A stretch of DNA of 64,000 nucleotides from Longimicrobium sp. (GCF_036399935.1 NZ_DASWMD010000058.1:1-64000); one strand, 5' to 3'. Counted from the stretch's first letter, positions 46,498 to 64,000 are shown. Notes: generated by a model from the letters alone, not told the origin. A program made the numbers and translations.

Positions 46498-48534
46498 TCA
46501 CGGCACGCCAGCTGGCCGGAATGCCGGGAAGGTGCGGCCGATGTACGACGCCACTCCCGTCGTGCGTTCGGCCGCAGCATCCGCGCTCAGCGCAGCGGCG
46601 AGCGCGCGGCGCATCCCGGGCTCATCCCCTTCGCCTTGCGCGATGTGCGCAAGCCGCACGTACAGCCAGGGGAGCGAATCGTCGCTCCGCGTGGGACTTG
46701 CCAGCGCCTGCGCGAACTGCTGCCTCGCCGTGGCCGCGTCCTGACCGAAAAACGCGAGCGTGCCAAGCAGGTAATGCGCTCCGAAACGGGTGGCGTACAG
46801 GTCCGGCTCTGGAACGTCGTGGAGCATTCGCTCGAGTTCCGCCTTCGCGGATGCCACGTCCTGGCGGAACATCGCAAAAACGTAGGCCCGCATGCCGCCG
46901 GCATTCGCGCGTGCCTCGCCCAGCAGCGCCGGGTCCCAGCGCGGAACCAGGCTTTCGGGATCCAACTCCACGGACAGCACCGGCGCCGGCACCCTGATGC
47001 GGAAGGGCGTCGACTCTCCTCGAATGCGGATGTTTCGTGTGACCGCTCCACCCTCGAACGTCACCTGGACAGGAAGCTCCAGGTCGTACGCCGGGCCCTC
47101 CTGACGTATCGTGCCCTGCACCGACCGGCCCGCTCGCCTCCATTCCAGCGTCGGCTGCGGAAGCCCGGAGCGCTCGTACCACTGTGTCCAGAAGGTGCCC
47201 AGATCCCGTCCCGCGCCACGTTCCACCGCAGCCTTCCACTGCGGCCAGGTGACCTGCTCACCCGCGTGATCGCGGACGAACCGCTGGAGCACCGCGCGAA
47301 ACCTCTCCCGCCCGACCGCGCGCGCCAGCACCTCGTGGGCGAGAAAGCCCTTTCCATCGGCTATATCGTGCGAAACGTGGGCAAGGAACCCGGTGTCCGG
47401 CAACGCGTCGAGGGGAAAGTCGAACCCGGATTGGGCCAGGTAGGCGTAGCCGCGCAGCCCATGCGTGAACGACATCCCCGGGTAGCCCAGCCTCCGGAAC
47501 GACCGGGCGGCCGCGGGGCCCTCCATCACCTCCACGACGCGCAGAGCGCCGTACTGGGCCATGGCCTCGTCCAGAAGATAGCTGCCGCGCTCGCCGCGGT
47601 GCCGCACGGCAATCCCCCACCACTGGTGCCCCACTTCGTGCGCAAAGAAGCCCATGTTGAACGGCTCTTCCAGGTAGGTCTCGGTGGAGAGGATGAATCC
47701 GTCCAGGCTCGCGCCGTCGAATCCGGCGGCCCCCGCCTGTGCGGCCGGCGCCTCCGCGAGCGAAAACGCACCCCCCGGCAACGGGCCGAACTCCTCCACC
47801 AGCGCGTCGACCACCTCGCCCAGCCGCTGGGCGAGCGCGTTCACGTTGGTCCGCCGCTTCAGCGAGTATACCGTGATCGGCCGCGCACCGCCTGCGTGAT
47901 CGACGTAGTACCGCGCCGCCGCGAAGGCGAACTCGGCGGGGCGGTCCACCACGAACGAAAAGACCCCTGCTCGGCCCTCGTCCGCTCCGCCGGCCCTGCG
48001 GCCAGTGGACACGACCGTGACGCCCCCGGGCACCTGGAAGCGCAGGGTGCCGGTGCCGGTTCCATCACCCCACTTCGGATACCACGTGGCGCCGGCGAAC
48101 GAGCCCTCTTCACCCAGATACAGCAGGAACCCGGGCGTTTCGCCCCCCGCGTACGAAAACCGCAGCCGCACCGGCTCGTCGGGCGGAAACGGCGCCCGCG
48201 GCGCGACGATCCACGTCGGGGGCTTTCCATCGGCCACCCGGCGCGTCAGCGTGGCCGGGCCCGCGCTCCGGTCGGGGGAGAGCACCTCCACCTGCAGGCT
48301 GTCGAACTCCGCCCGCAGGCGAAGCTCGACGGTGTCGCGGGATGCCGCTGCCGCGGGGAGGCGAAGGATCCCCCGGGCCTGAAGCCGGTGCGCGGCCGGA
48401 TCCAGTGCCACCTCCAATTCGTAATGGGGAGACGCCGCCGGGGCGCCGGCCGCCTCCTGCGCATGGCCGCCACCCGCAAGAACCCCGGATAGCAGCGTGG
48501 CTGCGAGGTAGGCGGCTGGTCGCGGGTCGTACAT
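46498..48534 (-). CDS. M1-family zinc metallopeptidase (aminopeptidase N-like), secreted
   Basis: Signal peptide MYDPRPAAYLAATLLSGVLAGG. HEVGHQWWG zinc motif plus the downstream LLDEAMAQYG Glu. Helical/TPR-like C-terminus. Confidence 0.85.
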   Translation of the reverse strand: MYDPRPAAYLAATLLSGVLAGGGHAQEAAGAPAASPHYELEVALDPAAHRLQARGILRLPAAAASRDTVELRLRAEFDSLQVEVLSPDRSAGPATLTRRVADGKPPTWIVAPRAPFPPDEPVRLRFSYAGGETPGFLLYLGEEGSFAGATWYPKWGDGTGTGTLRFQVPGGVTVVSTGRRAGGADEGRAGVFSFVVDRPAEFAFAAARYYVDHAGGARPITVYSLKRRTNVNALAQRLGEVVDALVEEFGPLPGGAFSLAEAPAAQAGAAGFDGASLDGFILSTETYLEEPFNMGFFAHEVGHQWWGIAVRHRGERGSYLLDEAMAQYGALRVVEVMEGPAAARSFRRLGYPGMSFTHGLRGYAYLAQSGFDFPLDALPDTGFLAHVSHDIADGKGFLAHEVLARAVGRERFRAVLQRFVRDHAGEQVTWPQWKAAVERGAGRDLGTFWTQWYERSGLPQPTLEWRRAGRSVQGTIRQEGPAYDLELPVQVTFEGGAVTRNIRIRGESTPFRIRVPAPVLSVELDPESLVPRWDPALLGEARANAGGMRAYVFAMFRQDVASAKAELERMLHDVPEPDLYATRFGAHYLLGTLAFFGQDAATARQQFAQALASPTRSDDSLPWLYVRLAHIAQGEGDEPGMRRALAAALSADAAAERTTGVASYIGRTFPAFRPAGVP

Positions 48535-53468: not shown

Positions 53469-53594
53469 GGCCCAGGCCTGTAGCCTCGCCCCTTTTCACG
53501 AGAAGCTTGCAACACGATGGTAGCAGCTTTATCATGCGGATGCGGCACCCACAAACCGCCGCAAAATGTACACACTTCTACTGCGAGGTGAACA

Positions 53595-53765
53595 ATGGAG
53601 TGCCTGAACTTCCTGCAGGGGCCGCTGGCCAGCCAACACCTGGAAGGCACGCGCGGCGCCGTCGCCCACCTGGGGTTCGTGGCCCAGGCGATGGCCACGC
53701 AGTCCAAGTGCCCCAACTGCTGCGTCTCGAACTCGGGGGGATGCACCGCCCCGTGTGGCGAGTAG
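53595..53765 (+). CDS. Candidate lanthipeptide precursor (56 aa)
   Basis: GAGGTG Shine-Dalgarno 6 nt upstream of the ATG. Sequence MECLNFLQGPLASQHLEGTRGAVAHLGFVAQAMA-TQSKCPNCCVSNSGGCTAPCGE. The C-terminal 22 residues hold 5 Cys and 5 Ser/Thr. A modification kinase and a LanC-like gene follow directly. Confidence 0.6.
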   Translation: MECLNFLQGPLASQHLEGTRGAVAHLGFVAQAMATQSKCPNCCVSNSGGCTAPCGE

Positions 53766-53774
53766 CAGTCCCGG

Positions 53775-53804
53775 CGAGCGGCCCGGCATCCGCCGGGCCG
53801 CTCG
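53775..53804 (+). terminator. Perfect 13-bp-stem hairpin between precursor and kinase genes (attenuator candidate)
   Basis: CGAGCGGCCCGGC-atcc-GCCGGGCCGCTCG, 10 nt after the precursor stop. No U-tract follows. Confidence 0.5.
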
Positions 53805-53877
53805 TGATCCCATGCCCCCTCGGCGCCCCCCTGCCCAACGCCGTCTCAGGACGCGAAGTCCATACGAGGTCCCGCGC

Positions 53878-54969
53878 ATGCTGCTGTCCAGCTCGCAGGT
53901 GGTTACCTACCTCCTGGAACACCGCTTTCTTTCCCCCGCGCAGGTGGTGGAGGGCGGGGTGCTCGTGGAGGACGTCTCGCGCCGCAACCGCAACTTCCGC
54001 GTGGTACCCGCCGAAGGGACGGCCTTTCTCGTGAAGCAGGCGGCGTACGCCGAAACCGCGGGCTCGGTGGCGCGCGAGGCGCAGGTCTACCGCATGCTGG
54101 CCGGGCTTCCACGCGGCCGCACGCTGGGTCGCAGCCTTCCCCGCTGCTTCGGGTACGACGACGGCGCCGGAGTGCTGGTGCTGGAACTCCTTCCCGGAGT
54201 GCAGGACCTGCGGCAGTACCACGTGCTCCGCCGCCACTTCCCCGTACGCGTAGCGCGGGCCGTGGGAAAGGCCCTGGGAACCCTGCACCGCACCACCCGC
54301 GGGCTCGCCGGGCCGGCGGAGGACAGCCGCCCCGGCTGGGCGCTCTCGCTGCACCTTCCCGGTCCACGCTTCCTGCAGACCGCCAGCGCCGCCAACGCGC
54401 AGCTGGTGCGGATCATCCAGCAGTACGGCGAGTTCACCGCGCTCCTGGACGAGGCGCGCGCCGGGTGGCGGCCCGAGGCGCTGATCCACCACGACATCAA
54501 GTGGGACAACCTGCTGGTGCGTGCCCCGGGCGGCGGCGCGCTCAAGATGATCGACTGGGAGCTGGCCCGGTACGGAGACCCCTGCTGGGACGTGGGATCG
54601 GCGTTCAACGACTACCTGACGTTCTGGCTGCACTCGGTACCCATCACCGGCGAAATTCCGCCCGAGCGCTTTCTGGAGCTCACCTGGTGCCCGCTGGAGC
54701 GCATGCACCCCGCGTTGCGCGCCCTGTGGGATGCCTACCTGCGCGAGACCGGCGCCGACGCGGCACAGGCGGCCGAGTGGCTTCCGCGCGCGGTGCGCTA
54801 CACCGGGGTGCGCCTGGTGCAGACCGCCTACGAGCAGATGCAGTCGTCGCTGGCGCTCACCGGCAACGTGGTGTGCATGCTCCAGCTGGCATGGAACCTC
54901 CTCCGCCGCCCGGCCGAGGCGGCCGGGACCCTCCTGGGGCTGGGCCTCCGCGAAAGGCTGGCCGCATGA
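53878..54969 (+). CDS. Stand-alone APH/protein-kinase-fold kinase (lanthipeptide LanK-like)
   Basis: GAGG Shine-Dalgarno. Catalytic loop IHHDIKWDNLLV (HxDxxxxN). IDWELARYGDPCWDVGS (the APH-family DFG-equivalent). 363 aa. ATGA-coupled to the next gene. Confidence 0.75.
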   Translation: MLLSSSQVVTYLLEHRFLSPAQVVEGGVLVEDVSRRNRNFRVVPAEGTAFLVKQAAYAETAGSVAREAQVYRMLAGLPRGRTLGRSLPRCFGYDDGAGVLVLELLPGVQDLRQYHVLRRHFPVRVARAVGKALGTLHRTTRGLAGPAEDSRPGWALSLHLPGPRFLQTASAANAQLVRIIQQYGEFTALLDEARAGWRPEALIHHDIKWDNLLVRAPGGGALKMIDWELARYGDPCWDVGSAFNDYLTFWLHSVPITGEIPPERFLELTWCPLERMHPALRALWDAYLRETGADAAQAAEWLPRAVRYTGVRLVQTAYEQMQSSLALTGNVVCMLQLAWNLLRRPAEAAGTLLGLGLRERLAA

Positions 54970-57272
54970 CCCCCTACCTGCACCAGGTGGACGCCGCCGT
55001 GCGGCACGGGGCGATCCTTTCGCCCACCCGCTTCGCCTGGCTCGGCCGCCCCTCCCCGCCCCTTCCGCGCGCCACGCTGCGTGCCCTGACCCCCGCCACG
55101 GCGCGTGCGTACCTTCGCCACCGCATCCAGCAGGCGTTGTACACCGGCCTCTACACCCGCGGCGATGCCATGGCGCCTCCCTCGGAGCCCGGTCAGGCCG
55201 ACGTGGGCACCACCTCCTTCATCGCCGCGCTCTCGGCCGCCAACACGGGAAAGGGGGCGCTTCAGGACGGATGGGTGGTGGAGGCGGTGGATGGGAGCGC
55301 CGTGCAGGTGCGGCGGGGCGGCCTGGCGCTGCGGGTGCCGCGCCGGATGCTGCCCCGAGGCCGGACGCCCGCGCCCGGCACGACCGTGCGGATGCGGGGC
55401 GAACGGCAGCTGCTGAGCTACTCGCCAGGGTACTACGTGGCCATGGGCGACGTGGGATTGGGCGCCGCGGGCGAGCCCCTGGTGCGCGTCTACTGGCACC
55501 TGGAGCCGGCCGGTGCCGCGCCGGTGATGCATGCGCTCACGGGTGCGCTCAACCGCGCGCGGCTCCCCTTTCACTTCAAGGTCCTCAACGCGCCGGAGCG
55601 CTTCGACCGCTGCGACGCGGGGGTGCTCTACTTTCCGCAGGCGCGAGGGCGCGAGGTGCTGGCGCGGGTGGCGCGGGTCCATCCACGGGCGGCGGCGCAC
55701 CTGCGGCCCCGCGTGCCGGCGTTCACGCTGGAACTTGCGCCCGGGCTGGGGCTGGCGGAGGACCCCAGGGCGGGCGAGAGCTTTGGCCTGCACCGGTGCG
55801 GGCTCCTTGCCGACGCCCTCATCGAGGCGCACGAGGCGGGAGTCCGCGGGCAGGCGGAGCGGCGCGCGCGGTGCGTAGCGCACTTTCGCGCCCACGGAGT
55901 CGATCCCGATGCGCCGTACCTGAACCCCGGGAGCAGCAACGACTATCGGTTGCCGCCGCGCGCCGCGCGCCCGGCTGGCCGTCCAGTCCGCACGCCCGCC
56001 CCGGGCGTACCCGCGGAGGCGCAGTCCGCGGCGCCGCCGCGCGAGGTTTCGCTGCGGATCGCGACGGAGCTTGGGGCACGGCTGGCCGAGGCCGCGGTGT
56101 GGCACGGCGATCGGTGCAACTGGGTGGGCATGATCCCCGACGGGAGCAGCCGGTCGTACTCGTCGCTGGAGCCGGACGTGTACGCGGGGACGGCCGGGGT
56201 GGGCCTGTTCGCGGCGGAGCTGGCGCGGGCCACCGGCGACGGCGGGCTGCACCGGCTGGCGATCGGAGCGGTGCGCCAGTCGCTGCACCGGGTGGAGACG
56301 CACTTTCCCCCCTACCCGTGGGGCCTGTACGCCGGCGTGGCGGGCATCGCCTTCGCGGCGGCGCGCGTGGGCGTCCTGCTCGGCGAGGCAGAGCTGGCGG
56401 AGCGCGCGCGGGCCCTGGTGGACCGGGCGCGGGTGGAGAGCGATCCCGGCGAATTCGACCTGATGTTCGGCCTCGCGGGCGGCGTGCTCGCGCTGCTGGC
56501 GATGGAGCAGACGCTGGGCGACCCCTCGCTGCGGCCGCAAGCGGCGCGGCTGGGCGAGGAGCTCCTGGCGCTGGGCATGCCGATGCACGGGGGAACCGCG
56601 TGGCGCTCGATGCAGGCCACGGGCGAGCGGCCGCTCACCGGGCTTTCGCACGGCGCGGCGGGCGCGGGCCTCGCCTTTCTGGAACTGTTCCGTGCCACCG
56701 GCGACGCACGCTTCCGGGACGGGGCGGAGGGCGCGTTCGCCTTCGAACGACACTGGTTCGACGCCCGGCAGGGCAACTGGGCCGACCTGCGCAAGGAGCG
56801 GGCGCGCGGCCGGGGCCCGGTGCCGGTCGATACGCAGTGGTGCCACGGCTCGGCGGGGATCGCGCTCTCGCGGCTGCGCGCCTGCGAGCTGCTGAAGGAC
56901 GAGGTGTACCGCCGCGAGGCCCGGGCCGCCCTGGAAGCCACCCGCAGGGCCGCCGCCGATGAGCTGGCGGGCACCGGCAACTTCTCCTTTTGCCACGGGC
57001 TTGCGGGGGCGGCGGAAGTCATCCGCGAGGGTGTCGCCTGCTTTGGCGGGGACGTGGATCCCGAGGGAGTGGCGGCCCGCATCGCCGCGGAGGGGGCCGC
57101 CAGCCACGCCCGCGGCATCCCGTGGCGGTGCGGAGTTTCCAGCAGCGACTCGCCCTCGCTCCTGCTCGGCCTGGCGGGGATCGGGCGTTTCTACCTGCGG
57201 CTGTTCGATCCCTCGCTTCCCTCCCTCCTGCTGGTGACCCCCGGGGCGTTCGCCCCCTCGCCAGCCGCCTGA
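54966..57272 (+). CDS. Fusion protein: about 380-aa N-terminal domain of unknown type (putative phospho-Ser/Thr lyase, HopA1-like?) plus C-terminal LanC-like cyclase
   Basis: C-terminal half has LanC motifs GLSHGAAG (SHG), WCHGSAG (WCxG) and FCHGLAG (CHG), so the Zn ligands are intact. The N-terminal half has no motif I can assign. 768 aa. Confidence 0.75.
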   Translation: MTPYLHQVDAAVRHGAILSPTRFAWLGRPSPPLPRATLRALTPATARAYLRHRIQQALYTGLYTRGDAMAPPSEPGQADVGTTSFIAALSAANTGKGALQDGWVVEAVDGSAVQVRRGGLALRVPRRMLPRGRTPAPGTTVRMRGERQLLSYSPGYYVAMGDVGLGAAGEPLVRVYWHLEPAGAAPVMHALTGALNRARLPFHFKVLNAPERFDRCDAGVLYFPQARGREVLARVARVHPRAAAHLRPRVPAFTLELAPGLGLAEDPRAGESFGLHRCGLLADALIEAHEAGVRGQAERRARCVAHFRAHGVDPDAPYLNPGSSNDYRLPPRAARPAGRPVRTPAPGVPAEAQSAAPPREVSLRIATELGARLAEAAVWHGDRCNWVGMIPDGSSRSYSSLEPDVYAGTAGVGLFAAELARATGDGGLHRLAIGAVRQSLHRVETHFPPYPWGLYAGVAGIAFAAARVGVLLGEAELAERARALVDRARVESDPGEFDLMFGLAGGVLALLAMEQTLGDPSLRPQAARLGEELLALGMPMHGGTAWRSMQATGERPLTGLSHGAAGAGLAFLELFRATGDARFRDGAEGAFAFERHWFDARQGNWADLRKERARGRGPVPVDTQWCHGSAGIALSRLRACELLKDEVYRREARAALEATRRAAADELAGTGNFSFCHGLAGAAEVIREGVACFGGDVDPEGVAARIAAEGAASHARGIPWRCGVSSSDSPSLLLGLAGIGRFYLRLFDPSLPSLLLVTPGAFAPSPAA

Positions 57273-60013
57273 GGCACGCCTCCGGATCGGCGCGGGGGAC
57301 GTGGGTCGGCTGGTGCCGCCGAAAGCCGCGGCCCCGGCGAATCCCCATCGGCAGGCACATCCGGCTGGGCCGCCGCTCCCGGATCGGGGGTGACATCGAT
57401 GATCAACGTGTCGGCGCGGCCACCGAACGACGCGACGAGGGTGTGCCGCCCCGGCGATTCGAACGCAACGTGCCGCAGGGCGGACGCCGGCACGATGCGT
57501 ACGTACGGACCCCCGGTGATCTCTACGCGGATCGGCGCTCCGGCGATCACACGCCCGCGTGCATCGTACGCCTGTGCGCGGAGTTCCAGCGGCTGGCCCA
57601 CCTGCGCGCGGGCCGTGCGCGGCGAAAGGCGCACCCGCGCGACCGGCGCCGTCACCACGACCTGCACCTGGACCTCACGGGCAACCGGCTCCCCGCTGGG
57701 CAGGGTATCTCCCGAGCCGCTGAGCCCATGCACCCGCACCGTCGTCCGTCCGATGCGACGCGCAACGACCCAGACGGCGGGCTCCCCGCGGAGGTGGGGG
57801 CTCGGGCGCGCGAAGGGGCGCAGGCGTACGACGGAGCTGTCGCCCACCGCCCAGCCGGATGCGCTGAGCGTCGCGTACCCGCCGCTGCACACGTCGGAAT
57901 GGCAGCGCTGTTCCTCGACGGAGAACGGGACGGAGTCGCCGACCGCCATCCAGACCTCGTCGCCCGTGCTCCCGGGCGCACTGACGAACCTGCTGATCGA
58001 GTTGACGGAGGCCTCGTAGCGCCGGCGCGCCGCCGCGGCTTCCAGGCGCAGGGCGGAATCGGGCTCGGGCACCTGCGGATCTACGTACTCGATCCGCACA
58101 CTGTCGCGCCGGTAGACCACGGGAACCTCCGGCCGCATCTGCCAGACCGAGGCCCACGCCGGCCGCAGCCCCACCAGCCTCGCGATCGTTGCGCTGTCGC
58201 GCAGCGTCAGCACCACGGCCCCGTTCTCCACGAGAGCCCCGGCATCGGCGGGGGGGCAGCTCGCGATCATCCCGGGCAGGCAGTACCGCGCATCCGCGGC
58301 GGCAACCAGCTCGGAGAGCGTGGCGAAGCGGCGGGCGCCCTCCCCGTGTCCGCGGCTGATCGAAAGTGAAAGCGAGCGCGGGCCATCGATGCCGTCGATG
58401 CCGATGCTCCATTGGTACGCCGGCTGGTATTGCGGGTCCTGGAGTTCCGACCAGCCCCAGCCGGCCGCCGTGTCTCGCGGAAAGATCACCCGTATCTCGC
58501 GCCGGCTCGCCAGCACCCGCGTGGTCCGGGTGCCAAGCGAGTCCTGGCCAGGATCCTGGGCCGGCCGCGCGTAAGGAGGTGCGGGCAGTGCGAAACGGGG
58601 GAGCCCCGCAACGGGGATGGGGGCGGGCTGGCATGGCTCGTCCTTCCACTGGGCGCTGCGGTTCTCGCAGGGTACGACCTTCGGATTGCGGCCCAGCGCA
58701 GGGCCTGCCTTCCCCCAGCAATGAACCCTGCCGTAGTCTGCCAGCGCACAGGCGTGCTCCGTGCCGACGGCCAGCGCGTACCACCTGCGCCCGGGAGCGA
58801 CCTCCACCGCGGCGGGCGAGCACCGGCCGCCGAGAAAGCAGAGGTCATCGTAGGCGGCTCCCGCGTCGGCGGCGCCTCGGTAATCCGGCGGGCCGCCGTC
58901 CGGTCCCGCGTTGGCGGTGGTGAGCGACCCCAGCTGGCCGTTCCTGTTTTCTCCCCAGCAGAAGACCCTCGCGTCCGCCGTCCGCGCGCACGCGAACTGG
59001 GAGCCCGCATGCACCTCGACCGCACGGCCCGGGAGCGGAACGTACTGCGCGCGGGGGGAGTTGGGCATGCGGCACCTCCCCAGCACGCACCGGTAGTTGT
59101 CACCCCAGCAGAACACCCGGCCGTCGGCGGCGACGGCGCAGGCCAGCACGTCGCCCGCGCCGACCTGGAGGAATTCTACACGGGAGGGATCGTCGTGGGA
59201 GCCGGGAACGCTGTCCGGCAGGATTCGCCGCGGGGTGGCGGTGCTGCACGGCCGGCTGGAGTACGGGAGCGGCTCGCTCGCGCAGCGGATCGCGGCGGAG
59301 TCGCCGGTCTGGCCACTCTGCCCGTACCCCCAGCAGTACACGCCGCGGTTGTGGGATGCCACGCCGCAGGTGAGCCGCCCCCGTGCGCTCAACTGGGAGA
59401 ACCGCAGGCCGCCCGTAACGGCGCCAGGCGCCCGGCTGAACGGCCCGCCGTCGCCCACCGAGTCGGGCGCCCAGGTGCCGTTGCCGAGCTCGCCCATCTC
59501 GTTCTTGCCCCAGCAGAAGGCCGCGCCATCGTGCGCCAGCGCACATGCGTGGGACCAGCCTGCCGCCACCGCTCGCACGTACCGCGGCGGCAGCTCCCCC
59601 TCCAACGGCAGCGGAAACACGCACGCCCCGTATCCGCACTCCCCGGGGACCGCCATCCTGGTTCCCGCCGAGTCGGTCCACCCGCCCGTCGCGCGAGGAT
59701 TGCACCACGCCTCCCAGGCGATCGTCACTGCGCAGACACCCGACTGCGACGGCGCGATGGATCGTACCCGCGCAGCCTGCCCATCCGCCGAGAGGACGCG
59801 GACAGGCGCCCCCTCTCGCTCGCCGATCCCACCCCAGCAGTACGCCGCCGCCGAAGTCGTCGTGATGCAGGTGACATCATCCGCGGCTGTCAGCGCGGCG
59901 AGCGTGTCGACGCCCACTGCCTGGACCCTGTCCGGCGACGGCGCGGGCCGGGGTGCGGCGCATCCGGCCAACGACACCGCGGCAAGAAGGAGTACGTTGG
60001 CGGTCCGGGGCAT
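57191..60013 (-). CDS. RCC1-repeat lipoprotein with C-terminal Big_2 (bacterial Ig-like) domain
   Basis: Lipobox LLLAAVSLAGC. Repeated CWGxNxxGQLG motifs. C-terminal Ig-like module. The 3' end overlaps the LanC-like gene convergently by about 80 bp. Confidence 0.7.
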   Translation of the reverse strand: MPRTANVLLLAAVSLAGCAAPRPAPSPDRVQAVGVDTLAALTAADDVTCITTTSAAAYCWGGIGEREGAPVRVLSADGQAARVRSIAPSQSGVCAVTIAWEAWCNPRATGGWTDSAGTRMAVPGECGYGACVFPLPLEGELPPRYVRAVAAGWSHACALAHDGAAFCWGKNEMGELGNGTWAPDSVGDGGPFSRAPGAVTGGLRFSQLSARGRLTCGVASHNRGVYCWGYGQSGQTGDSAAIRCASEPLPYSSRPCSTATPRRILPDSVPGSHDDPSRVEFLQVGAGDVLACAVAADGRVFCWGDNYRCVLGRCRMPNSPRAQYVPLPGRAVEVHAGSQFACARTADARVFCWGENRNGQLGSLTTANAGPDGGPPDYRGAADAGAAYDDLCFLGGRCSPAAVEVAPGRRWYALAVGTEHACALADYGRVHCWGKAGPALGRNPKVVPCENRSAQWKDEPCQPAPIPVAGLPRFALPAPPYARPAQDPGQDSLGTRTTRVLASRREIRVIFPRDTAAGWGWSELQDPQYQPAYQWSIGIDGIDGPRSLSLSISRGHGEGARRFATLSELVAAADARYCLPGMIASCPPADAGALVENGAVVLTLRDSATIARLVGLRPAWASVWQMRPEVPVVYRRDSVRIEYVDPQVPEPDSALRLEAAAARRRYEASVNSISRFVSAPGSTGDEVWMAVGDSVPFSVEEQRCHSDVCSGGYATLSASGWAVGDSSVVRLRPFARPSPHLRGEPAVWVVARRIGRTTVRVHGLSGSGDTLPSGEPVAREVQVQVVVTAPVARVRLSPRTARAQVGQPLELRAQAYDARGRVIAGAPIRVEITGGPYVRIVPASALRHVAFESPGRHTLVASFGGRADTLIIDVTPDPGAAAQPDVPADGDSPGPRLSAAPADPRPPRRSGGVPQAAGEGANAPGVTSRREGSEGSNSRR

Positions 60014-60279
60014 TGGGGGGAGCGGTCCGTGTGAAGGCGGTGGGAGTGGCGGCCGATCCATCAAGGCACCGCTACGACGCCAACGAGCCTGATCGAGTCA
60101 ATCCTACCCCGGCAGCAACGTGCGCGCGATGTCACGCCGAAGCGCCACCCGCGCCTCCAGCTCGTCCGCGTGCTTCTCCGCCAAGTCCGCCACCACGGAC
60201 TCGCACCCCTTCGGCGCCGAGCGCGCGTTGCGCCCGCTCATCCGCGCGCGGCGAATTGCGTGAAGCCCGTGGCGGTGAG

Positions 60280-60716: not shown

Positions 60717-62096
60717 TCACTGGATGTTCAGCGCGCTCATCGGCACGACGTAGAAGTCGCTCGCACGCAACGTGGGGGAGAAGATGGTGCGCGCGAAGTA
60801 CAGGTGCCGCCCGTCCCGTGAGATGGTGGGGTGAAACTCGTCGTCGGCGGTGTTCACCGGCGGGCCCAGGTTGCGCGCCGGGGTCCAATCCCCGCCGCGA
60901 AGGTGGCTGATGTACAGATCACCGTACCCGTGGCCGCCGGGACGAAGGGAGGTGAAGATGAGGGTGCGCCCGTCCGCGGAGATCTCCGGGTTGAACTCCC
61001 AGTCGGCCGTAGGATTGGCGGGGTCGTACGCCGCGTCCGTGTTGATGGCGCCGCTCAGCATCTCCCGCGGGGAAAACCCCTCACCCCTGCGCTCGGCGCG
61101 AAAGATGTTCCAGTCGGCGGTGGGCGCAGGCCCGGCCGGCCCACTGGCGAAATAGAGGGTTCCGTCCGCCGCAGCCGAGGCGTAGAGCTCGTCCGCAGGC
61201 GAATTGACCTCCGCGCCCAGGTGCACCGGTTCGCTCCACCCGGTGCGCGTGCGCTCCATCATCCAGATGTCCAGGTCGGTGCGTGGTGCCCCTCTGACCG
61301 GGCGGATCGAGGCGAAGTAGAGCCGCCGTCCATCCGGGGTGATGAACGGATCGATGTCCGTGTACGTTCCCGAGAAGGGCGCCGTCTGGGGCGAGCTCCA
61401 AACGCCGCCTCGAAGGTGCGAAACCAGGATGGTGGAGCGGCGGATCCGGGGAAAGAAGCTGTCCGCGGCGGTGTAGTAGGCGGTTCTCCCGTCGGGCGTA
61501 AAGGTGATTCGATACTGCCAGCGGGCGTCGGAGATCACGCCCGGCGAAAAGATCTGCACTCGCGTTGCCGACGGCGCCGCAGCTTCGGGCGACCCGCTCC
61601 CTGCCGCCCCGCCTGGGCACGCAACGCGGGCCATCGGGAATTCGATCGCCTGTGGGTGCCCCGCATCGAAGCCTTCGACCCGCGCGACGAGCGAGTCCGA
61701 TCCGGCACGCCGATACCGGATCGTCTGCGGGAAATCGTGCTCCGGGTTGGTGAATACCACTTCCGTGGCCGAGATGGCGGCACTGCTGAACGCCGCGGCG
61801 GGCTGGCCCGATGGGTGCGCCGTAAACACCAGGCGCTCGCCCCGTTCGGAAATCCGCATCAGCTCGTAACTCACCGTCGAGTCGCCACGCGTCGTTCGGC
61901 TCATGCCGAGCATGGTTCCGCCGCGGGGCTCCATCCAGTGTTCCTCGGTCCACGCTCGCTCGGACCCGCCCTCCCAACACCCCGCCAGCCAGCGGACTTC
62001 CTCGATCGGCGAAAGGTCCATGTACGCCGACGCTCCCGGCGGAACGGCGACGAGCGATGCGATCAGCAGTCGGCGAGTGAGCCGGTGAGCATTCAT
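60717..62096 (-). CDS. Secreted protein: N-terminal domain of unknown function plus TolB-like WD40-type beta-propeller
   Basis: Signal peptide. Repeated DG(R)xLYFAS modules (DGRTAYYTA, DGRRLYFASIR, DGTLYFASG, DGRTLIFTS, DGRHLYFAR). Confidence 0.7.
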   Translation of the reverse strand: MNAHRLTRRLLIASLVAVPPGASAYMDLSPIEEVRWLAGCWEGGSERAWTEEHWMEPRGGTMLGMSRTTRGDSTVSYELMRISERGERLVFTAHPSGQPAAAFSSAAISATEVVFTNPEHDFPQTIRYRRAGSDSLVARVEGFDAGHPQAIEFPMARVACPGGAAGSGSPEAAAPSATRVQIFSPGVISDARWQYRITFTPDGRTAYYTAADSFFPRIRRSTILVSHLRGGVWSSPQTAPFSGTYTDIDPFITPDGRRLYFASIRPVRGAPRTDLDIWMMERTRTGWSEPVHLGAEVNSPADELYASAAADGTLYFASGPAGPAPTADWNIFRAERRGEGFSPREMLSGAINTDAAYDPANPTADWEFNPEISADGRTLIFTSLRPGGHGYGDLYISHLRGGDWTPARNLGPPVNTADDEFHPTISRDGRHLYFARTIFSPTLRASDFYVVPMSALNIQ

Positions 62097-62280
62097 GCAA
62101 CGGTTCTCTGTGCGGGTGGGATCGTGCTCGGAGCCATCAGATCGGACGTGCGGCTGATTCGCTCAATTCCGCAGGATGTGCACGAGCTGCTGAAGGGCCT
62201 TGTCGCGCCGCTCCAACTCGTCCGCGTGCTTCTCGGCCAGGTCCGCCACCACCGCCTCCACCCCTTCGGCGCCGAGAGAA

Positions 62281-62529
62281 TCAGCGCTCTGCAAGCTCCC
62301 ATGGAAGCGTTCGGCTTTCATCCACGGGCTTGAGGAGGCCACGGTTCCGCAGCTTCTGAGCGGCCCAGCGAATATCATACTGCCACGTATAGAAGAGATC
62401 ACCACGCTGCCGAAGGTCGGCTTCGTGGTGATCCCAGATGTATTTGGCAACACCAAGCACGTTGCTCGCACCACCGCGAGCGCGAAGTGCTTCCAGGACC
62501 CAATCGACGAGAATATCGCGTGAAGCCAT
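62281..62529 (-). CDS. Hypothetical protein (82 aa), co-operonic with the HTH gene
   Basis: ATG at 62529, 6 nt after the HTH gene stop. Ordinary, Trp/Tyr-containing composition. Confidence 0.4.
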   Translation of the reverse strand: MASRDILVDWVLEALRARGGASNVLGVAKYIWDHHEADLRQRGDLFYTWQYDIRWAAQKLRNRGLLKPVDESRTLPWELAER

Positions 62530-62535
62530 GATCGA

Positions 62536-62808
62536 TCATGCCTTGTGGGAAGTGGAGCCTGAAGAGCGATCGCGCAAGGTGGAAGCAAGTCGACGAAGCT
62601 CGTCGGCATGTTCCTCGAGTCGATCGGCTTGGCGGTTAGCCAATTCGGCGATAACTCGCGGCCAATCAGGCGGCGGGGAACGCCGATTTTCAGTATCAAT
62701 GCGCGCCCGTGCGATCGTGGCCAATTGGACGCCAAACCGCTCCGCTATCCTTGCCAGCGTGACGGTTGGTGAGTTGGTGAGAATGTCGGTCGCTGTCTTG
62801 AAATCCAC
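62536..62808 (-). CDS. Small HTH DNA-binding protein (90 aa)
   Basis: TVTLARIAERFGVQLATIARA helix-turn-helix. GTG start. A palindrome lies immediately upstream. The region is lower in GC. Confidence 0.45.
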   Translation of the reverse strand: MDFKTATDILTNSPTVTLARIAERFGVQLATIARARIDTENRRSPPPDWPRVIAELANRQADRLEEHADELRRLASTLRDRSSGSTSHKA

Positions 62809-62813
62809 TTGGT

Positions 62814-62858
62814 AGTCTGGTAGTTACCTATTGACTACTCCGCAGCCGGTAACTAGAT
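62814..62858. promoter_or_regulatory. Inverted repeat upstream of the HTH gene (operator candidate)
   Basis: TAGTTACC-tattgactactccgcagcc-GGTAACTA, with an extra GTTACC half-site downstream. Confidence 0.35.
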
Positions 62859-62999
62859 TGTTACCAACGCAGGGCAAAAGCAAGGCTGGCCGCTCTCCCG
62901 CCAAGAAGAATCGACCAGCCTCACGAGAACGACCCGAAGGCCGCCCGCCGACAACGGTAGCCCTGCCGGGCGGCACGGGTCAAGAGGATTGGAGCCACC

Positions 63000-63179
63000 A
63001 TGGTTGTGGAGCACACGGTCCCGCGGAGGTCCACGCTGGAGCAGCAGGCCGGCTACTCGATCCAGAAGCAGGACAAGAGCCGCTTCTGGGAGGTGCGAGA
63101 TGCGGCCGGCGAACTCGTTTGCCTGACGGTGTACAGGCGCGGTGCACGGGAGGTGGTGCGGAGGTTGGTACGCAGTTGA
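63000..63179 (+). CDS. Small hypothetical protein (59 aa), divergent from the HTH gene
   Basis: MVVEHTVPRRSTLEQQAGYSIQKQDKSRFWEVRDAAGELVCLTVYRRGAREVVRRLVRS. A GGAG lies 8 nt upstream. Confidence 0.3.
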   Translation: MVVEHTVPRRSTLEQQAGYSIQKQDKSRFWEVRDAAGELVCLTVYRRGAREVVRRLVRS

Positions 63180-63260
63180 TCTTCCATCTGAACGTGAGAG
63201 TAAGAGGGCGGCCGATGCTGATTCGGCCGCCCCTCGTCGTACCAGCAGACGCGCTGAAAA

Positions 63261-64000
63261 TTATATGGTGAGTATCCGTCCGCGCGCGTCCACATGCCCT
63301 GCCGCCGTGAGGGCGTCGTTCAGGCTATCCCGGTACACAGAGAACGGAGATGAGTTTGATCGTCGGTCCCATGTAAACCCGAACACCCACGTGACCATCG
63401 AAGCAAAGCCACTATGGCCCCCATAACGGAGATTGTACGGCGTTCTAAGACGCCAGCCTTCTGCATGCACAAGCTGAGTGATCTTCTTAGGAACAAATAC
63501 CATGAGTAACTTTTGCTTCTCGTCAGCTGAAAGTCCAGATAAATCGTCCGCCCCGCACGCCAGAATAGCCGCGTATAGTGACCCACCAAGCACCTGCTGT
63601 GCTGCTAGGCCAAACCGGGGTTCACGGTTGAAGTTCTCAGCCAGAAATTCTTGCATTGGCTTCCAAACCTCCGGCGGCCAATTAAGGTCCCCATTCAATG
63701 TCAGGCAGAGGCACCAATCCAGCCGAGGTGATTCACTATGGATCTCGCAAAGCTTCCGGATCCACGTTAAAACCGGGAAGGATATCCGCCCATCTGACGA
63801 GAGGTCCGCATCAAGTGGTGTAGTCAAATCCAGGTTGATGATGGACGCGCGGAGCATTGCGCGGAGTTTTTTCTCCGGAAAGCTCATCATACCTGTACCA
63901 CGGATCAGGCTATGGAATGACTCACCATACGTGCGTAAACCAGGGAATTTCCGGCGAAGAGCCAACTCAGCACCAGGACTACTCTCAACAGCAACCACGA
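63261..64000 (-). CDS. Hypothetical protein, 5' end probably beyond the window
   Basis: Ordinary composition in lower-GC DNA. The ORF reaches the window edge. Confidence 0.45.
   Translation of the reverse strand, partial: VVAVESSPGAELALRRKFPGLRTYGESFHSLIRGTGMMSFPEKKLRAMLRASIINLDLTTPLDADLSSDGRISFPVLTWIRKLCEIHSESPRLDWCLCLTLNGDLNWPPEVWKPMQEFLAENFNREPRFGLAAQQVLGGSLYAAILACGADDLSGLSADEKQKLLMVFVPKKITQLVHAEGWRLRTPYNLRYGGHSGFASMVTWVFGFTWDRRSNSSPFSVYRDSLNDALTAAGHVDARGRILTI

Follow-up and report, generated by a model that had tools for sequence, protein, structure and literature searches.

A predicted LanY-type lyase fused to a LanC-type cyclase in a class V-like lanthipeptide locus of Longimicrobium

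Class V lanthipeptide pathways are defined by a stand-alone kinase, LanK (PF01636), and a stand-alone lyase, LanY (PF17914) (PMC11186320, PMC12291118, PMC12328550), which together constitute the class V dehydratase (PMC9486802; PMC12141560). Two subgroups are recognized: Va, with LanD and LanX and no LanC, and Vb, with 'a dedicated LanC cyclase', whose sole characterised product is mSmoA (PMC11186320, PMC12291118, PMC12328550). Here we describe a 64,000-nucleotide stretch of a Longimicrobium sp. genome (NZ_DASWMD010000058.1:1-64000, assembly GCF_036399935.1; the whole stretch is called the window below), in which a gene for a 768-aa protein (54966..57272, + strand) adjoins a kinase gene. The initial annotation had described the C-terminal part as a LanC-like cyclase and had nominated the unassigned N-terminal half as the candidate elimination domain, a nomination that the HopA1 profile, the LxmY fold and the conserved catalytic residues described below bear out. 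We read the locus, with a probability of roughly 85%, as a lanthipeptide pathway in which a LanY-LanC fusion and a separate LanK mature a 56-aa peptide.

The closest described systems are those of subgroup Vb (SmoK/SmoY/SmoC), which, like the window, combine an APH-fold kinase, a HopA1-type lyase, a LanC, and a Cys/Ser/Thr-rich precursor. Neither has LanD or a second, APH-like LanX; in the window, no second APH homologue occurs anywhere in the 64 kb and no flavoprotein is found among the called genes within ~10 kb of the operon, so the subgroup Va hallmarks LanX and LanD are absent. There are two differences from the Smo system as citing papers describe it (PMC11186320, PMC12291118, PMC12328550): its LanC is a separate protein, whereas the lyase and cyclase of the window form one 768-aa polypeptide, and its host is Streptomyces rather than Longimicrobium (Gemmatimonadota). 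The window thus departs from the Vb pattern of separate kinase, lyase, and cyclase polypeptides and is an architectural variant of it. No description of a fused LanY-LanC was found in the literature searched, which did not extend to the original Vb report of Pei et al. 2022. That study reportedly identified more than 240 class V clusters with LanC, and fused examples may be among them.

Both the N-terminal domain and the kinase have their best relatives, by sequence and by fold, in LxmK-LxmY (9DK1-9DK3), and the lyase residues of LxmK-LxmY and of CaoK-CaoY, from the cacaoidin (Va) pathway, are conserved in the window protein. Unlike the window, with its LanC, these Va pathways use LanD and LanX, form aminovinyl-methylcysteine (AviMeCys), and have no LanC. 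Class IV LanL (CuvL, PDB 8CAV) and class III LanKC share with the window the combination of kinase, phospho-lyase, and LanC-fold cyclase chemistry (the cyclase being zinc-dependent in LanL), as well as having lyase and cyclase in one chain; however, they are single lyase-kinase-cyclase proteins with a Pkinase-type kinase and an OspF-type lyase, whereas the window encodes a separate APH kinase and a predicted HopA1-type lyase. The thioamitide enzymes TvaC/TvaD (ThoC/ThoD) likewise pair an APH kinase with a HopA1-like lyase to dehydrate Ser/Thr (PMC9486802, PMC8153245), but these pathways have no LanC, belong to another product class, and employ other tailoring enzymes.

Domains of the fused protein

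The 768-aa protein divides into the following segments.

54966..55964, + strand: predicted LanY-type (HopA1 family) phospho-Ser/Thr lyase domain, residues 1 to ~333 (profile, fold, and conserved residues)
55965..56039, + strand: Pro/Ala/Arg-rich interdomain linker, residues ~334-358 (predicted local distance difference test score, pLDDT, below 50 over 334-349)
56040..57272, + strand: predicted LanC-type zinc cyclase domain, residues ~359-768 (profile, fold, and invariant motifs)

The N-terminal domain matches the Pfam HopA1 family (PF17914) over residues 153-319 (profile positions 7-170 of 170), with an E-value of 4e-38 and a score of 131.4 bits against a curated cutoff of 22.7. A phmmer search of PDB sequences has chain B of 9DK1-9DK3 ('Lyase') as its top match (E = 2.6e-17, residues 37-305); this chain is LxmY of the lexapeptide dehydratase LxmKY (PMC12141560). 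The same chain (9dk1-3_B) heads a Foldseek search of the PDB with an AlphaFold2 model of residues 1-380, which was built from 56 homologues and has a pLDDT of 90.1 and a predicted template modelling score (pTM) of 0.84. The Foldseek match has an E-value of 2e-21 over ~340 aligned columns and a target-normalised template modelling (TM) score of 0.76-0.78, with the N-terminal helices and the beta-sheet subdomain included; because it extends across the whole N-terminal domain, the entire domain, HopA1 core included, appears to be LanY-type. The profile and structure searches proposed in the initial annotation thus return a lyase fold and not an unrelated one, and of the two lyase kinds it had considered, the HopA1-like (class V) option agrees with both the Pfam match and the first place of LxmY by sequence and by fold.

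Residues R174, K205, R215, D217, and Y222 align with identical residues of LxmY in the phmmer alignment. Across 44 fused homologues sharing 32-46% identity, four of these (R174, K205, R215, and Y222) never vary, and among 56 LanY-type proteins they are invariant or more than 90% conserved. In CaoY, the K219A substitution abolishes phosphate elimination, R187A nearly does so, and R229Q impairs it, and Y236 is the counterpart of the conserved Tyr158 of SpvC (PMC9486802); the spacing of the four window residues is 31/10/7, compared with 32/10/7 for CaoY R187/K219/R229/Y236. On profile, model, and motif evidence, we assign residues 1 to ~333 as a putative LanY/HopA1-type phospho-Ser/Thr lyase domain. 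The separate N-terminal domain noted earlier is thus retained, although the length of ~380 aa first given to it was slightly generous, with the lyase fold ending at ~333 and the cyclase beginning at ~359.

The C-terminal domain matches Pfam LANC_like (PF05147) from residue 400 onward (E = 1.4e-48, 165.7 bits against a cutoff of 23.2), and among NCBIfam models it scores highest against the cyclase portion of LanM (residues 355-749, 226 bits). The putative active-site His, H562 (in SHG), as well as C626 (WCHG) and C676-H677 (CHG), are invariant in the 44 sequences, and the SHG, WCHG, and CHG motifs align with their equivalents in LicM2, LanCL1, LanCL2, and GCR2; from established knowledge of NisC and LanCL1, we take the motifs of C626, C676, and H677 to supply the zinc ligands. 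A model of the full-length protein (pLDDT 89.9, pTM 0.82) falls below a pLDDT of 50 at residues 334-349 only, and its C-terminal half matches the alpha/alpha-barrel folds of LicM2, LanCL1, GCR2, MadC, and NisC, with target-normalised TM scores of 0.64-0.74 (LanCL1 0.73, NisC 0.66, MadC 0.64). Residues ~359-768 are accordingly predicted, from profile and model, to be a LanC cyclase with Cys-Cys-His zinc ligands. That a chain of two domains reaches a pTM of 0.82 is a hint that its lyase and cyclase parts could pack against each other.

The gene model is consistent across sources, with an identical 768-aa call in the mutually independent JGI, ENA, and Logan assemblies; the JGI sequence (3300034142 Ga0334959_000003) is the same as that of the window, a high-G+C metagenomic contig with ~72-76% G+C around the fused gene. 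The mechanical open reading frame (ORF) in this frame is longer (54465..57272) and opens at GTG 54465. That start was rejected, with the G+C fraction at third codon positions (GC3) being 0.49 over 54465-54965 compared with 0.90 from 54966 on, and with homologue N-termini beginning at ATG 54966; from its first residue on, the N-terminus MTPYLHQVDAAVRHGAILSP fits the N-terminal consensus of 43 full-length homologues. ATG 54966 shares the sequence ATGA with the stop codon of the upstream kinase gene, an overlap indicating that translation of the fused gene is coupled to that of the APH kinase. The NCBI entry (WP_331074314.1 / HEY0024789.1, from a Longimicrobium sp. metagenome-assembled genome, MAG) is named only 'lanthionine synthetase LanC family protein', and the lyase half is absent from its current annotation.

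Operon, precursor, and predicted pathway

Upstream of the fused gene, on the same strand, are four further features.

53507..53535, + strand: sigma-70-like promoter match TTGCAA-17-TATCAT, ~60 nt upstream of the precursor gene (consensus match only)
53595..53765, + strand: candidate precursor gene lanA, 56 aa, MECLNFLQGPLASQHLEGTRGAVAHLGFVAQAMATQSKCPNCCVSNSGGCTAPCGE (gene finders, three assemblies)
53774..53805, + strand: perfect 14-bp G+C-rich stem-loop directly after the precursor stop (folding and complementarity)
53878..54969, + strand: lanK, APH-fold Ser/Thr kinase of 363 aa with an HHDIKWDN catalytic loop and an IDWE motif (Pfam APH)

The lanK product matches Pfam APH (PF01636; E = 1.2e-20), and its top PDB relative is LxmK (9dk1_A; E = 1.3e-9); by sequence it is best described as an LxmK-like APH kinase and not an LxmK equivalog. 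Gene callers place its start at 53878, which has a ribosome-binding site; an alternative start at GTG 53755 was rejected, as it would overlap the precursor gene and the stem-loop.

The candidate precursor gene has a GAGGTG ribosome-binding site upstream, and the last 22 residues of its product, with the C-terminus ATQSKCPNCCVSNSGGCTAPCGE, contain five Cys and five Ser/Thr residues. The N-terminus carries NFLQGPLAS, the ORF opening four residues ahead of FLQG, and no longer leader is possible, given the in-frame TGA at 53589-53591. The motif [FY]LQG[GPAS][ILM] directly precedes the Cys-rich cores of lanK-adjacent precursors at seven related loci from other phyla (L006, L013, L014, L016, L025, L027, and L043). 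In locating precursors, a crude Cys-count search was noisy, and motif and homology searches did better.

The sigma-70-like match is the sole one between 53000 and 60500, where shuffled sequences lead us to expect 0.2, and it may be the operon promoter. The stem-loop has a minimum free energy of -43.8 kcal/mol (z = -5.15; none of 200 shuffles was equally stable), and its arms (53775-53787 and 53792-53804) are 100% complementary and not followed by a T-tract; it may act as an attenuator or as an mRNA stabiliser between lanA and lanK.

With a lyase domain present beside the kinase, the cluster appears biochemically complete for dehydration and ring closure, and lanA-lanK-lanYC has the gene content of a complete minimal operon of class V, like subgroup Vb. 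We infer the enzyme activities, the substrate, and the ring pattern as follows. LanK, through its APH fold, would phosphorylate core Ser/Thr residues with ATP, and the HopA1/LanY domain would beta-eliminate the phosphate to give dehydroalanine or dehydrobutyrine, with K205 and Y222 abstracting the alpha-proton and R174 and R215 stabilising the enolate and the leaving group. The zinc of the LanC domain, held by C626, C676, and H677, would then activate the core Cys thiols for Michael addition, which could form as many as five (methyl)lanthionine rings. LanK and LanYC may also form a complex, as LxmK does with LxmY and CaoK with CaoY in their heterodimers. Most likely, the fusion simply tethers two enzymes that cooperate in its split relatives.

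Several observations count against such a pathway. The N-terminal domain shares only ~27% identity with LxmY, and the CaoY residues were mapped onto it through motif spacing and via LxmY rather than by direct alignment. The top NCBIfam model for LanK is LxmK (NF038156), at 104 bits compared with an equivalog cutoff of 315. No transporter or dedicated leader peptidase was recognised among the genes adjoining the operon. The precursor is also without a ~110-aa leader domain that most of its relatives have, and substrate recognition may thus differ here, or the cluster copy may be degenerate.

We weighed three other explanations, all of them far less probable than the pathway outlined above. The three proteins could act on cellular proteins or small thiols, with the small ORF being coincidental. 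Eukaryotic LanCL proteins add glutathione to dehydroamino acids, and the C-terminal domain has LanCL1, LanCL2, and GCR2 among its best relatives in both sequence and fold; moreover, neither an exporter nor a protease was seen beside the operon. However, a promoter-like site and a ribosome-binding site precede the 56-aa ORF and a stem-loop follows its stop, the ORF packs five Cys and five Ser/Thr into 22 residues, and its leader motif is common to precursors at homologous loci in other phyla. The best score of the cyclase domain, furthermore, is to the LanM cyclase model, and we consider a role outside peptide maturation very improbable.

In a second explanation, the N-terminal domain would be a lyase of OspF/SpvC type, as in classes III and IV, and the protein a split LanL/LanKC-like enzyme. 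After LxmY, the Foldseek matches run in order through Pseudomonas syringae HopA1 (4RSX, 4RSW), the lyase domain of CuvL (class IV) and beside it those of the class III enzymes ThurKC, SalKC, and PneKC, and then SpvC/OspF, and the full-length model aligns to CuvL across both domains of the window protein. HopA1 and OspF are also remotely related (PMC9486802; bioRxiv 10.1101/2024.08.21.608992). Nonetheless, the Pfam family matched is HopA1 and not OspF, and OspF/SpvC and the class III/IV lyase domains align over only ~130-240 columns (E = 8e-4 to 1e-1), compared with ~340 for LxmY. The kinase has an APH and not a Pkinase fold, and the NCBIfam LanL and LanKC models match the cyclase part only, at 104 bits for LanL (cutoff 650) and 73 bits for LanKC (cutoff 575). 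The OspF-like option of the initial annotation is thereby reduced to a group of distant fold relatives, and we judge the explanation a little less probable even than the previous one. Equally hard to sustain is a catalytically dead HopA1-like scaffold for kinase or leader docking, with elimination, if any, occurring elsewhere: much of LxmY does form the kinase interface in LxmKY, such that the fold is also structural (PMC12141560), but the four proposed catalytic residues are invariant in the fused homologues and nearly so in the LanY-type proteins, and the window contains no other lyase candidate.

About 5 kb from the operon, 46498-48534 (- strand) encodes a secreted protein of 678 aa that matches Peptidase_M1 weakly (E = 1.6e-5, slightly below cutoff). 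M1-family peptidases trim the leaders of some class III lanthipeptides, and this product is a speculative leader-peptidase candidate.

Distribution of fused and split forms and their precursors

We searched exhaustively with the fused protein over 1.84 billion cluster representatives. The best 150 matches all have E-values below 1e-124, nearly all align along most of the query, and they are mostly ~750-800 aa long. In these 150 listed clusters, lyase and cyclase are joined in a single ORF. A word-indexed search with the N-terminal domain alone recovered mostly stand-alone LanY proteins and so understated the fused family, which the exhaustive search corrected. Three of the fused homologues (P0120, P0175, and P0232) are longer, at 1115-1196 aa, each with ~350-430 additional C-terminal residues without a Pfam match, which could be an extra domain or a run-on ORF.

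In a survey of loci using one genome per GTDB species, the kinase lies directly upstream of the lyase and cyclase in ~70 of 80 genome loci. Lyase and cyclase form one ORF at 21 of 76 loci, and adjacent, mostly overlapping ORFs at the other 55, with some of the split calls in draft MAGs perhaps reflecting frameshift errors. The module was seen in Chloroflexota, Acidobacteriota, Gemmatimonadota, Planctomycetota, Verrucomicrobiota, Cyanobacteria, and Myxococcota, as well as in Actinomycetota (Catellatospora, Micromonospora, Nonomuraea, and Plantactinospora), Bacteroidota (Kordia, Hymenobacter, Spirosoma, and Flavobacterium), and Proteobacteria (Undibacterium and Pseudomonas), giving at least 10 phyla among the collected loci. 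One review gives actinobacteria as the only known source of class V lanthipeptides to date (PMC12328550); the collected loci extend the class V-type kinase-lyase-cyclase module to at least 10 phyla. A rough neighbour-joining tree built on the cyclase domain does not separate fused from split forms but mixes them, and the nearest neighbours of the window protein are of the split form, from Solirubrobacterales. The simplest reading of this intermixing is repeated fusion or fission of lyase and cyclase, which appears to have taken place within a single family. Separately, a fused lanK-lanYC is present on a 5-kb contig (L007, CAYTQD010000085.1) binned to a Nitrososphaeraceae archaeon MAG, which points either to a rare case in archaea or to misbinning.

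Most lanK-lanY(-)lanC loci, whether fused or split and in many phyla, have one or two precursors of 165-200 aa, in which a conserved ~110-aa N-terminal leader domain (consensus ...VPDPxxxPDxxxLxGFLGxS...RLYL...GGTxVWV...) has [FY]LQG at its end, ahead of a Cys-rich core. Examples include L014:6270-6785, L006:6257-6823, L025:2312-2776, and L027:6384-6851, and ~50 other loci have them too. The leader domain has no Pfam or NCBIfam match, its database members are all named 'hypothetical protein', and no remnant of it was detected in the 64-kb window (best E = 0.19). The precursors of L013 and L043 look short as well. At L074:5921-6199 (Undibacterium nitidum), the precursor contains the core PATQKTCTQTCGC twice, which resembles the window core ATQSKCPNCC.

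A different arrangement occurs at L004:6588-9686 (also L005), where a related fused protein, P0029, is just 561 aa long and its LanC part is faint and truncated. Ahead of it is a peptide of 70 aa, whose leader is of the double-glycine type (ELEGVSGG) and whose core lacks cysteine, and after it come genes for an HlyD-like protein and a C39-peptidase ABC transporter. Its products may be dehydrated, non-cyclised peptides.

The window cluster itself is a fairly ordinary class V-type pathway by its predicted content, with the lyase-cyclase fusion as its only unusual feature. The novelty is modest and lies in the fused architecture, the breadth of phyla, the unannotated long-leader precursor family, and the naturally short leader of the window. 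The LanY-LanC fusion is Rosetta-stone evidence for LanY and LanC acting as one unit, and fused enzymes could possibly be handier for lanthipeptide production in heterologous hosts. We also suggest, tentatively and at less than even odds, that LanK with a fused LanY-LanC is a widespread, experimentally uncharacterised two-protein synthetase architecture, spread over Gemmatimonadota, Chloroflexota, Acidobacteriota, Actinomycetota, Planctomycetota, Verrucomicrobiota, Proteobacteria, and other groups, with its own unannotated precursor family (~110-aa leader, [FY]LQG). If so, the 'mini-leader' of the window, which keeps only the [FY]LQG motif, would point to that motif as the minimal recognition element.

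Convergent overlap with the RCC1-like gene and adjacent sequence

The 3' end of the fused gene meets a convergent neighbour.

57191..60013, - strand: RCC1-repeat lipoprotein (signal MPRTANVLLLAAVSLAGC), without evident pathway role
57191..57272, both strands: convergent overlap of exactly 82 nt, present in all three assemblies

The overlap is real at the level of sequence, and its length of 82 nt, as first reported, is exact. Its + strand encodes FYLRLFDPSLPSLLLVTPGAFAPSPAA and then a stop, and its - strand supplies the RCC1-like ORF with its final 27 codons. The LanC family consensus ...GLAGIGxFYLRLxxPxxPSxL spans the first ~15 codons of the overlap and can also be aligned to the LicM2 C-terminus. 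In the RCC1-like protein, conservation ends with the block ...GGRADTLIIDV, beyond which lies a non-conserved, low-complexity tail of ~70 residues: more distant homologues stop 10-20 residues past that block, and the closest homologue, P0238 (74% identity, from a Gemmatimonadetes MAG), has a long tail too, but an unrelated one. The earlier suggestion that one of the two C-termini is shorter than its ORF cannot hold literally, because stop codons fix both ends; in a functional sense it holds for the RCC1-like protein, whose conserved part ends ~70 residues before the stop.

The two genes share their third codon positions, an arrangement that in G+C-rich DNA leaves few stop codons on the antisense strand. 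A run-on tail is the best explanation for the overlap, which results from the scarcity of stops in the antisense frame at ~75% G+C and is not a regulatory device. That it is instead an artefact of assembly or of a frameshift, or else an antisense device selected for regulation, we regard as improbable. No match to an intrinsic terminator was found between the convergent genes, and the GC3 of the RCC1-like ORF, 0.85 for the whole gene, drops to 0.66 in the ~230 nt before the overlap (its tail, 57273-57500), which is atypical for coding sequence here. However, the same sequence and gene ends are present in three independent assemblies, drift fits the pattern of RCC1-like tails better than selection does, and the phasing of third positions already keeps antisense stops rare.

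Three small ORFs farther along (60104-60241, 62163-62321, and 62536-62808, all - strand) share a common motif, VVADLAEKHADELE / IAELANRQADRLEEHADE, which is also found at the end of the P0238 run-on tail. In the P0238 genome, a copy of this motif element apparently occupies the site held here by the lan operon, which hints that the operon has been gained or lost at this site. From 62000 to 64000, the G+C content falls from ~0.70 to 0.56-0.61 and the ORFs are small, and the stretch adjoins an N6/N4 DNA methyltransferase gene and an HATPase gene just past the window; this may be a mobile or foreign segment.

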